Shown here: in pieces, positions 5,683 through 25,510 of the stretch
Layout: the number at the start of each line of letters is the position of its first letter
Numbering within the stretch: position 1 is the first letter of the stretch
Assembly: GCA_951406725.2 (NCBI GenBank)
Contig: OX597815.1
Span: 189,720,001-189,784,000, forward strand
Direction of reading: 5' to 3'
Source: Octopus vulgaris
Taxonomy: Eukaryota
Length of the DNA: 64,000 nucleotides
The notes under the pieces: model-generated
Database searches by the model: none
Seen by the model: only the letters and a program-made list of their open reading frames with translations
What the model was told of the DNA's origin: nothing
Program-made: the position numbers and the translations under genes

Positions 5683-6112
5683 GGTGCAGGAGTAGCTGTA
5701 GGTACAGGAGTGGCTGTGTGGTAAGTAGATTGCTTACCAACCACATGGTTCCGGGTTCAGTCCTACTGCATGTCATCTTGGGCAAGTGTCTTCTACTATA
5801 ACCTCAGGCCGACCAAAGCCTTGTGAGTGGATTTGGTAGATGGGAACTGAAAGAAGCCCGTTGTATATATGCCTATATTTATATATATATATGTGTGTGT
5901 CTATTTTTCTGTGTTTGTCCTCCCCAACATCACTTGACAACCGATGCTGGTGTGATTACATCCCCATAACTTAGCAGTTTGGCAGAAGAGACTGATAGAA
6001 TAAGTACTAAGCTTACAAAGAATAAGTCCTGGGGTCGATTTCTTTGACTAAAGGCGATGCTCCAGCATGGCTGCTGTCAAATGACTGAAACGAGTAAAAG
6101 AGTAAAAGAGTA
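5683..6112 (+). mobile_element. SINE family A
   Basis: Full head-to-tail match to family A. Confidence 0.9.
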
Positions 6113-6120
6113 TATGATTC

Positions 6121-6302
6121 TTAAAAATTGCAGTAGAGTCCAGTTGAACAGACAGCCATGAATATTACTTGTCAGTACAACTACTGTATTGATCTCTTAG
6201 AGAGATTTTAGAACTAATATATGTATAGATACATATTTAGTAATATTTGTAGCTGCTTCAACATGGCTGTCCATTCAAACGGACTCTACTGTGATCTGTT
6301 AA
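6121..6302. mobile_element. MITE-like element with ~40-bp imperfect TIRs and TTAA ends
   Basis: TTAAAAATTGCAGTAGAGTCCAGTTGAACAGACAGCCATG vs CATGGCTGTCCATTCAAACGGACTCTACTGTGATCTGTTAA. Confidence 0.6.
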
Positions 6303-6556
6303 TCCTAAGAGGGCATCTCCTCTAGCTGGTTAACGCTATAGAGCTGCATCCAATAAATTGTGAGCAGGGGAGGGCACCCCTACTATGTTCTAGCAATGGG
6401 ACTAGTAGACCAGTCCTGGTTTTGGATTATTTTTGCTGGTCTTCAGTACACTGAGCCCATCACTAGAAGATGGTAGGGGTGTGCTCCCTTGCTCACAGTT
6501 TACCGGATGCTGCTCTGCATCATTAACCAGCTAGGGGCGATGTCGACTTGAGGTTA
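6300..6556. mobile_element. Palindromic element: ~100-bp inverted arms around a hammerhead-like spacer (6405-6449, -)
   Basis: Arms 6300-6400 and 6456-6556 are imperfect reverse complements; second copy at 7153-7302. Confidence 0.75.
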
Positions 6557-6569
6557 TTGGGGTTAATAC

Positions 6570-6712
6570 AGTGTTATTGCGTGCTCAGGAAAGGAAAGAA
6601 AAGAAAGAGGTTTTCATGTTTCGAGCGGAGCTCTTCATCAGAAATATAGAAAAAGTCCAAAGAAGGGAAGACGGAGAAAGAAAATTGCCAACGATACACA
6701 CACGGTCACATA
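6570..6712 (-). mobile_element. Family H Penelope-like terminal fragment with degenerate HHR (6612-6644)
   Basis: Minus strand TTT CTGATGA AGAGC TCC GCTC GAAAC ATG AAA; cleavage triplet mutated. Confidence 0.65.
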
Positions 6713-6804
6713 TGGAAAAAAAAATAAATAAACACACACATACATACAAAGACACATATATACACACACATATATATATATACCTATCTATCTATATGTG
6801 TGTG

Positions 6805-7075
6805 CAGTGAATGTTTGTGTCCCTTTGATCTTGACATCACATGATGGTTGTAAATGAGCTTCACTGTCATACAAGCAGTGTCATTTCCATACTTCCAGGT
6901 AACATGTCTGGCCAAAGGGAAATATTACCTTGTTTGGAAGTGGTCGAGGGCTGATAATATTACTTTGCTTGGAAGCAGGTGAGGCAAGGTAATCTGGCTG
7001 TAGAAAACCTGACTAATTGAATTATGTCTCACTCCTCATGTGAACATGGAAAAAATAGACATTAAAATTACAATG
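6805..7075 (+). mobile_element. Older SINE-like element with a family-C-type tail
   Basis: Similar segments at 12720-12850 (-), 42690-42843 and 58175-58400. Confidence 0.55.
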
Positions 7076-7152
7076 CCAATAATGAAGATTATTTTCTTAA
7101 ATTCTTTAAATTCTTGGACTTAACAAACTTTCATCTCGAGCAGACTTTATAT

Positions 7153-7302
7153 ATTGTGAGGGGAAGTGAGCTACTACCATCTCTAGCAGATGAGCTGTCC
7201 AGTACTGAAGAGCGGCAGAAATAGCCCAAAGCCAGAACTGGTCTACTGGTCCTGTCACTAGAAGGTGGTAGGGGTTCGCTTCCCTGCTCGCAATTTATCG
7301 GA
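7153..7302 (+). mobile_element. Second, shorter copy of the palindromic HHR element (HHR at 7199-7249)
   Basis: CCAGTA CTGAAGA GCGGC AGAAATA GCCC AAAG CCAG AA CTGG TC TACTGG inside inverted arms. Confidence 0.7.
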
Positions 7303-7724: not shown

Positions 7725-7872
7725 ATTCTTTTATTCTTTTATTCTTTTACTTGTTTCAGTAATGTGACTGTGGCCATGCTGGAGCACTGTCTTTAGTCGA
7801 ACAAATCGACCCCAGGACTTATTCTTTGTAAGCCTAGTACTTATTCTACTGGTCTCTTTTGCCGAACCGCTA
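7725..7872 (-). mobile_element. SINE family A, 3' fragment
   Basis: Tail match. Confidence 0.85.
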
Positions 7873-8573
7873 CATGAAATGCTGCAAACTACATCAAATA
7901 CAGAATAGACAACACATTAGAAAGTGATAAACGCAGAATCTGTGGACAAAATGGTGAAACCATATGACATATTACCAGCCAATGTATGCCACTAGCCCAG
8001 AAGGAATATAAGAGACGCCACAACAATATAGCTAGGCTTGTCCATCGGACACTTTGTAACAAGTATGGACTTGACAGAGCAAACTGTTGGTATGATCACA
8101 AACCTGAAGGCATCATCGAAAGTGATAATGCAAAGATCCTGTTGGATTTTATGATTCAGTGTGACCACGAGATACAGAATAGGAAGGCATAGTCTTAATT
8201 GAGAAAGAAAGTAAACGATGCTGGATCACAGATATAGCATGCCCAGCTGACAACAAGGTATGCAATAAAGAAGAAAGAAAAGTCGAGAGATGTGACAGGT
8301 TAGCTTAGGAAGTTAAGCAGTTGTGGTCGATGAAAAAGGTGGTAGTTGTACCAATAATTGTCGGAGCCCTTGGAACAGTGAGTAAGAATCTTGAAAAGTA
8401 CATAGAATAAATAAGGGCCGCAATAAGTGTGGAGCACTTGTAGAAAACAGCACTGCTTGGAACCACTCGAATACTGCGGAAGGTGCTCAAAAAATAAGAG
8501 GTGTTACCTTAGTTACTGGTAGTGAACAGCTGACACTGTAGTACATCTCTAGCATTAGAAGCTGTGCAAAGGC
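7873..8573 (+). pseudogene. 5'-truncated R4/Dong-like non-LTR retrotransposon: CCHC knuckle, restriction-like endonuclease and 3' UTR, with stops and a frameshift
   Basis: Translates RICGQNGETI*HITSQC...YKRRHNNIA...RK[PD]IVLIEKESKRCWITDIACPADNK...VVVVPIIVGALG...KTALLGTTRILRKVL; followed by (AAT)n. Confidence 0.88.
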
Positions 8574-24926: not shown

Positions 24927-25510
24927 TGTTATATTTCAGAATGGTCATTTTGCCAGTTTAGTCATTAAAAATACACGCACTATATATTTGGTGTTACTTT
25001 GCTTCAGTGTTATTTATTTTTTACATTAATCTTAGTCTTATTTCCGCCAGAGTTCTTTCGTCACACTCCTGTGACCGCATCAGTGGTCCTTTGTTTTCTT
25101 CTTTCTTATTTGTGTCTCTCCTTACTAACCGTCAACCATTTTGTATACAAAATACAAAATGGCTTACGGTTAGTAAGGAGAGACACAAATAAGAAAGAAG
25201 AAAACAAAGGACCACTGATGCGGTGCCATTTGTATTTTGTATACAAAATGGTTGACGGTTAGCAAGGAGAGACACAAATAAGAAAGAAGAAAACAAAGGA
25301 CCACTGATGCGGTCACAGGAGTGTGACGAAAGAACTCTGGCCGAAATAAGATTAAGATTAATGTAAAAAATAAATAACACTGAAGCAAAGTAACACCAAA
25401 TATATAGTGCATGTGTTTTTAATGACTAAACTGGCAAAATGACCATTCCGAAATATAACAATATCTGTTTCAACACACGACTTCACATAAAAAATCTTGC
25501 ACAACAAATA
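24925..25510. mobile_element. Near-perfect inverted repeat (~235-bp arms) with HHR-like motifs at 25047-25086 (-) and 25301-25340 (+); Penelope-like terminal repeat
   Basis: CCA CTGATGC G GTCAC AGGAGT GTGAC GAAA G AA CTC TGG; extra partial copy in the spacer; flanked by (TA)n. Confidence 0.75.

Follow-up and report, generated by a model that had tools for sequence, protein, structure and literature searches.

A decayed hammerhead retrozyme of Octopus vulgaris and a palindromic copy probably made during Penelope-like insertion

The window, a stretch of 64,000 nucleotides of Octopus vulgaris DNA, contains a palindrome whose spacer resembles a hammerhead ribozyme. This poses the question whether the palindrome is an element in its own right, transcribed into a rod-like RNA with a ribozyme at its tip, or the product of some insertion process acting on a repeat of another kind. 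We favour the latter and put its probability at about 85%: the window would hold decayed copies of a 361-nt hammerhead repeat that occurs in head-to-tail and permuted form (F1), and the palindrome would be a head-to-head inversion, likely made by the enzyme of a Penelope-like element (PLE) at insertion.

An inverted-repeat search confirmed the arms of about 100 bp and the hammerhead-like spacer of about 55 nt that a sequence-only reading had described. Positions 6300-6400 and 6456-6556, 101 nt each, are 77% complementary (78/101 ungapped) and enclose 55 nt. The element does not consist of arms and spacer, as had been assumed, for unit sequence spans 6239-6556 and a further piece lies at 6123-6216 (Table 1). 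The inverted arm takes the place of the native left arm and removes the internal loop of stem I; its head-to-head junction with the main segment was found at the window locus alone. Together, the three pieces form a circular permutation (110-217 on the left, 2-109 on the right) of one inverted insertion plus the AT-rich spacer, an arrangement unique to the window, for which two adjacent insertions and a local rearrangement are both possible origins. The AT-rich spacer itself is likely target DNA. Over 6123-6556, no reading frame stays open for 110 codons or more. In copy 1, the core residues G12 and G10.1 were assigned by the established hammerhead numbering, and the ribozyme is predicted to be inactive.

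Table 1. Features of the two retrozyme copies in the window. Unit positions count from the first base after the cleavage site; A and B are the two sites at which 3' ends cluster.
Feature	Position	Strand	Description
Extra unit fragment	6123..6216	+	Unit positions 110-217, of which 14 nt are deleted; ends 3' at site B and faces the main segment tail-to-tail
AT-rich spacer separating the two 3' ends	6217..6238	.	22 nt
Copy 1, main retrozyme segment	6239..6449	-	Unit positions 320 to 170, with start site A at its 3' end; 84% identical to the F1 majority
Copy 1, decayed type I hammerhead	6402..6449	-	Runs from 6449 to 6402; cut site after 6408; G12 to A, G10.1 to C, stem II broken
Inverted arm	6450..6556	+	Unit positions 2-109, head-to-head with the main segment; 82% identical to the F1 majority
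Short duplication	6557..6566	+	Unit positions ~101-109, where the arm meets the neighbouring Penelope-type repeat; basis: sequence
Copy 2, native fragment	7148..7302	+	Unit positions 266 to 60: left arm, hammerhead and right arm of a ~55-bp stem; 90% identical to the F1 majority
Copy 2, decayed type I hammerhead	7199..7249	+	G12 to A, A15.1 to G; cut site after 7243

Copy 2 retains the motifs reported for it: the 5' strand of stem I (7199-7204), CTGAAGA (7205-7211), a GGC/GCC stem II, a CCAG/CTGG stem III and the GUC site. Its hammerhead, too, is predicted to be inactive, and the loss of G12 from both window copies could be verified in the sequence. Copy 2 is not a second palindrome of about 100 bp, as had been proposed. 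It is not inverted and folds into a single long stem (z -6.0), which corresponds to the native, imperfect stem I extension of F1, about 55 bp in length.

Several other repeats lie in the window. On the minus strand, 6567-6718 belongs to an abundant Penelope-type pLTR-like repeat with a minimal hammerhead (3,673 candidates) and is cut short at the inverted arm. A common SINE-like repeat flanks the locus on both sides (5699-6117 and 7727-7872), the two copies facing opposite ways and being 85% complementary over 146 nt. The plus strand at 7900-8200 resembles, by eye, what is presumably a LINE remnant with a restriction-like endonuclease region. Further away, at 25064-25324, a near-perfect hairpin of about 260 nt gives a sub-threshold MIR2630 match and is likely a MITE or another inverted insertion. 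For one local LINE the nearest named homologue is an Argonauta sequence, as fits an octopod host.

A first genome search returned at least 667 F1 candidates, and all 40 that were scored matched, so the repeat is not a chance resemblance. Three genome searches yielded 74 loci, of which seven duplicates were dropped (L006, L023, L038, L039, L045, L052 and L072), leaving 67. The unit measures about 361 nt, and its end runs straight into its own start, giving permuted, head-to-tail copies. Segments scoring longer than one unit make up 32 of 105, a figure raised by one search that selected for the junction and by a few gapped alignments. Two loci (L064 and L033) carry two complete hammerheads in tandem, and among the loci examined dimers were the longest arrays, with no long array found. 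The earlier view that the element fits neither a MITE nor a tandem retrozyme is thus wrong in its second half: F1, permuted and multimeric, is of the tandem retrozyme type.

F1 copies are 88% identical to their majority sequence in the median and 94% at most, and the family thus looks old. In 60 copies not chosen by their core pattern, the G12 position of CCGAAA is G in 45, A in 11 and another base in 4, and the preceding position is C in 46, T in 12 and another base in 2. These paired G-to-A and C-to-T changes support the proposal that G12 was lost through CpG decay, and the GAAA core is indeed restored across genomic copies. Of 63 complete cores, 18 are intact. The sequence-only reading had named a spacer no better conserved than the arms as evidence against itself, and this is what we find: at non-CpG sites, conservation is 0.90 in the hammerhead and 0.87-0.92 in the arms. 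As such uniformity is to be expected of dead copies, it has no bearing on the ribozyme. Column counts show that F1 possesses the full core and three stems of a type I hammerhead. The Rfam scan of the window lists no hammerhead among 150 of its 158 matches, and a scan of four loci at gathering score gave 0 matches. The best match of F1 is Hammerhead_HH9, whose 15.4 bits fall short of the cut-off (52), and none was found for F2, a sister family of F1. Four contig sets that we presume to be RNA contain only diverged pieces, none of which extends across the stretch searched for.

Folded as a circle, the F1 majority reaches -141 kcal/mol (z -7.4, 60 shuffles). In the predicted fold the hammerhead caps the imperfect stem I of about 55 bp and the remainder is branched. 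The idea of a rod-like RNA with an apical ribozyme therefore survives in part, as the native RNA is predicted to carry its hammerhead at the tip of a long stem; the rest of the unit is predicted to be branched, where a viroid-like or deltavirus-like RNA would be a rod over its whole length, with ribozymes in both polarities. Isolated hammerheads of 59-61 nt gave no significant z, except for the minus strand of copy 1 (-2.3), in a fold that is not a hammerhead.

Covariation of the stems, which had been named as a check, is indicated between families and not within F1. RNAalifold on 36 native F1 copies produced no useful consensus and did not recover the structure, and pair covariation inside F1 does not exceed shuffles. 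Subfamily variation is located at N7, the stem II bulge and loop III. Changes in the stem are mostly A-U/G-U or G-C/G-U, and 6/7 of those at subfamily level keep pairing via G-U. F2 has a unit of 353 nt and 2,568 candidates, and it is predicted to fold like F1. The two families are identical at 223 of 346 aligned positions (64%). When the 110 F1 pairs are compared with F2, 58 are the same, 10 are kept by one change, 18 are kept by two and 24 are broken. Changed pairs are thus kept in 28/52 cases (p 0.001), and the double changes alone are significant at p 0.004, both against random letters at the same positions and both based on predicted folds and one pairwise alignment.

For F2, 25 loci less the query locus (L139) and one duplicate (L154) left 23. 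Its copies (L140-L163, e.g. L148:635-1719 and L144:1003-1783) are mostly 90-98% identical to the majority and have a short palindromic stem III; F2 is younger than F1. A dimer and a trimer (L148) show spacings of 350-352. At L219:4590-5113, a third related hammerhead repeat is likewise inverted head-to-head; it lies between AT repeats, and one of its arms carries additional sequence. The PLE next to it has inverted terminal repeats and an RT/endonuclease frame of 428 codons.

Judged by its sequence, the element is a non-LTR retrozyme, and its hammerhead a genuine type I ribozyme that was lost by CpG decay in the window copies. With the metazoan non-LTR retrozymes of Cervera and de la Pena 2020 (PMC7229834), which include mussel repeats of about 350-390 bp, F1 shares the type I hammerhead, a non-coding unit, head-to-tail multimers, a highly self-paired predicted circle, a mollusc host and the presence of PLEs in the same genome. 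That study gives a monomer of about 170-400 nt and a GC content below 45% as criteria for the class. The 361 nt of F1 and 353 nt of F2 lie inside this range, and the GC content of the F1 majority (46.8%; lower in decayed copies) is slightly above the 45%. Unlike those retrozymes, F1 consists mostly of dispersed copies shorter than a dimer and decayed by about 12%, and is known here from genomic sequence. Its frequent head-to-head inversions and its two fixed 3' ends are not described in the available part of that paper.

How, then, are these units inserted? The 5' ends of F1 copies are scattered, whereas the 3' ends cluster at unit position ~170 (A) and at ~217-231 (B), about 60 nt apart. For F1, 39 of 103 segments end at A, 30 at B and 34 elsewhere; in F2, the numbers are 14, 20 and 5 (n=39). 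The DNA beyond these ends is, by eye, mostly AT-rich and has no poly(A). Purified PLE protein is reported to cut AT-rich DNA, to extend both strands and to start reverse transcription at two internal sites, which define the tail (PMC11167929), and an inverted 5'-truncated copy with the tail at one side is described as standard for PLE insertions (PMC8557442, PMC3846280). F1 shares with the insertions described in these three sources the 5' truncation, the adjacent inverted 5'-truncated copy, the optional tail at one end, the AT-rich or microsatellite targets and two start sites downstream of the hammerhead. It differs from them in having no ORF, a full hammerhead of the tertiary type in place of a minimal one, and a tail of about 47-60 nt against 30-40 nt. 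PLEs with a GIY-YIG-type motif are abundant in this genome. As 3' ends at two sites about 60 nt apart in AT-rich DNA are the 'tail' signature of PLEs, these elements likely mobilise F1.

Inversions are frequent. They occur in 26 of 67 F1 loci (15/39 among loci not picked by a palindrome query) and in 18/23 F2 loci, and their junctions vary between loci and are spread all round the unit. At least one end lies at neither A nor B in 21 of the 44. The other 23, F1 and F2 taken together, have both ends at A or B: 19 combine A with B, four have A at both ends and none has B at both (p 0.0013 against 0.5). This use of one site at each end in 19/23 cases suggests that both cut DNA ends were primed on one RNA, one per site. 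The coupling is unexplained by the available account of the PAc protein in vitro, because there the start site was no different between strands (PMC11167929). No target duplications were evident by eye around 10 inversions.

We propose the following sequence of events. Tandem master copies would be transcribed and self-cleaved to monomers, which would probably be circularised. A PLE protein would then cut AT-rich DNA on both strands, and reverse transcription would start at A (unit ~170) and at B (unit ~217-230), likely on the same RNA. The two 5'-truncated cDNAs would finally be joined head-to-head. If one cDNA runs through the hammerhead and the other stops near the cut site, a palindrome with a hammerhead spacer would result, as in copy 1.

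An alternative keeps the element and its PLE carrier and attributes the inversion to a single cDNA that folded back and primed itself, a step that the long native stem would favour; endonuclease cutting would determine the second end. Self-priming has been proposed for rotifer Penelope (PMC3846280). The short arm of copy 1 lies within the span of the long arm, and subfamily marks and rare variants are common to both arms of a locus about 2-3 times more often than to shuffled arms. In F1, the two arms agree at 89 of 110 diagnostic sites against a mean of 0.57 and a maximum of 0.75 in shuffled arms; in F2, concordance (17/27) is inside the shuffled range. The F1 figure fits a single template, and would also fit subfamilies active at different times or gene conversion. 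Against self-priming, the long arm does not cover all of the short arm in 8/26 F1 and 10/18 F2 inversions, some of the F1 cases being fragmented copies, and the short arm cannot have been copied from it there unless the centre was later deleted. Often, too, the short arm has its end at B and the long arm at A (L029, L062, L067). We thus consider self-priming unlikely.

It is also conceivable, albeit improbable, that the unit is no free retrozyme and instead represents a solo pLTR, together with its tail, that belongs to an autonomous PLE. Every insertion signature is PLE-like, and frog retrozymes resemble pLTRs (10.64898/2026.07.22.740005). At many loci, however, the 3' part of the unit runs into its own 5' part, and dimers and the trimer have no ORF between their units. 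The unit loops into itself without an ORF, RT and GIY-YIG included, and no PLE ORF is linked to it in the loci examined; nor did any of 30 loci from one GIY-YIG-like PLE family reveal an autonomous PLE of which the unit forms an end. A related repeat beside one PLE was considered as a link to a partner and rejected as a separate insertion.

A distinct palindromic element, spreading as a rod of about 250 nt capped by the hammerhead, was the picture that the locus first suggested, and it is now largely refuted; we regard it as very improbable. Copy 1 does fold into a long rod, and its permuted pieces could pass for a composite opened from a circle. The hammerhead forms the spacer at 7/67 F1 loci, of which six come from a query-biased search, and at 1/39 loci from unbiased searches and 0/23 in F2. 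Each of these loci has a different junction. Because of these low counts and variable junctions, the palindrome with a hammerhead spacer is a minority outcome and not the element itself. The tail-to-tail joint at 6123-6449 occurs in 1/67 loci, the window alone, and the genome search found no second copy of it among 40 scored of 764 candidates. Type I hammerheads use the internal loop of stem I for a tertiary contact, and a perfect arm removes this loop. Two further readings would account for the inverted arms and for the physical linkage of an L1-type LINE to many copies: a DNA transposon, such as a MITE, whose hammerhead-like centre arose by chance, and a SINE that such a LINE carries. Both are rejected as negligible possibilities given the permutation and variable 5' ends, the lack of fixed termini, terminal inverted repeats, poly(A) tail and, at 10 loci inspected, any common duplication, and the position of the LINE within the unit, whose sequence it duplicates.

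We therefore return to insertion by a PLE enzyme as the preferred reading. The architecture, for which no description had been known to the sequence-only reading, combines a by-product known from PLEs with a class of element that is also known: inverted 5'-truncated copies beside a hammerhead-bearing pLTR have been described for PLEs (PMC8557442, PMC3846280). The mobiliser of animal retrozymes was left open between LINEs and PLEs (PMC7229834), and a preprint has already argued, from co-occurrence and from similarity to pLTRs in vertebrates, that retrozymes derive from PLEs as non-autonomous forms (10.64898/2026.07.22.740005). We arrive at the same carrier, and at dispersed monomers beside tandem forms, from the anatomy of the insertions. 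The fixed pair of 3' ends, the AT-rich target sites and the inverted 5' copies give direct genomic support for PLEs as retrozyme mobilisers, and from the rule of one site per end (19/23) follows a concrete prediction for the in vitro system that exists for PLEs. In the literature searched, which lies largely outside subscription papers, Repbase reports and supplements, we found no description of a cephalopod retrozyme, of inverted retrozyme insertions or of Tx1 elements associated with hammerheads; species tables may list octopus elements.

The retrozymes are themselves linked to an L1-type LINE. A fragment of it occupies the same place in the left arm at four F1 loci (L009, L012, L016 and L026), and where both LINE ends are seen (L009, L016) it is flanked by 20-nt duplications of the unit's own sequence. 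Since the LINE lies inside the unit between duplicated unit sequence, the retrozyme is the target of the LINE. The 3' end of the LINE is present in 28/30 fetched loci and continues into F1 (15) or F2 (12) in 27 of the 28. In both families the insertion point is about 25 nt upstream of the hammerhead (L009, L012, L016, L026, L089-L138, L164-L178), at a motif, CAYCTCTAGC, that is common to F1 and F2. Intact LINE 5' ends adjoin the upstream half of F1 or F2 (L127, L128, L129, L165 and L167), so that LINE insertions were independent at least across subfamilies. The upstream half is missing from 11/13 F1-linked 8-kb stretches, many of which end at A or B. It is therefore likely that the PLE route copied many of these LINEs again as cargo, and the 27 joints do not represent independent events.

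Domain matches of the LINE comprise an APE endonuclease, an RT and a zinc knuckle, of which only the RT is above cut-off. It is a putative member of the Tx1 clade. Tx1 families that target other transposons and satellites are known (Tx1D, Mariner-N4, U2, microsatellites and satellites; PMC4494074), and like them the octopus LINE inserts at one site of another repeat. Its target differs from those in the available part of that source, being a motif common to two hammerhead retrozyme families. Joined to the PLE reading, this would give a three-tier parasite system. The retrozymes would record PLE insertion, with one RNA primed at two fixed sites by two cut ends to yield palindromes with a one-sided tail. 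In two families they would also be the specific target of an L1/Tx1-type LINE, which would land about 25 nt upstream of the hammerhead and then be carried along by PLEs. We give even odds to this joint picture, of which no description was found in the literature searched. If it is true, a LINE specific for hammerhead retrozymes would extend the targets of sequence-specific LINEs by a new class, and it could rely on the transcription and ribozyme of its host retrozyme to form its own RNA ends. Among individual copies, one LINE looks near full length (L136) and another locus (L166) holds a LINE-in-LINE tandem; the LINE's own 5' end resembles its target.
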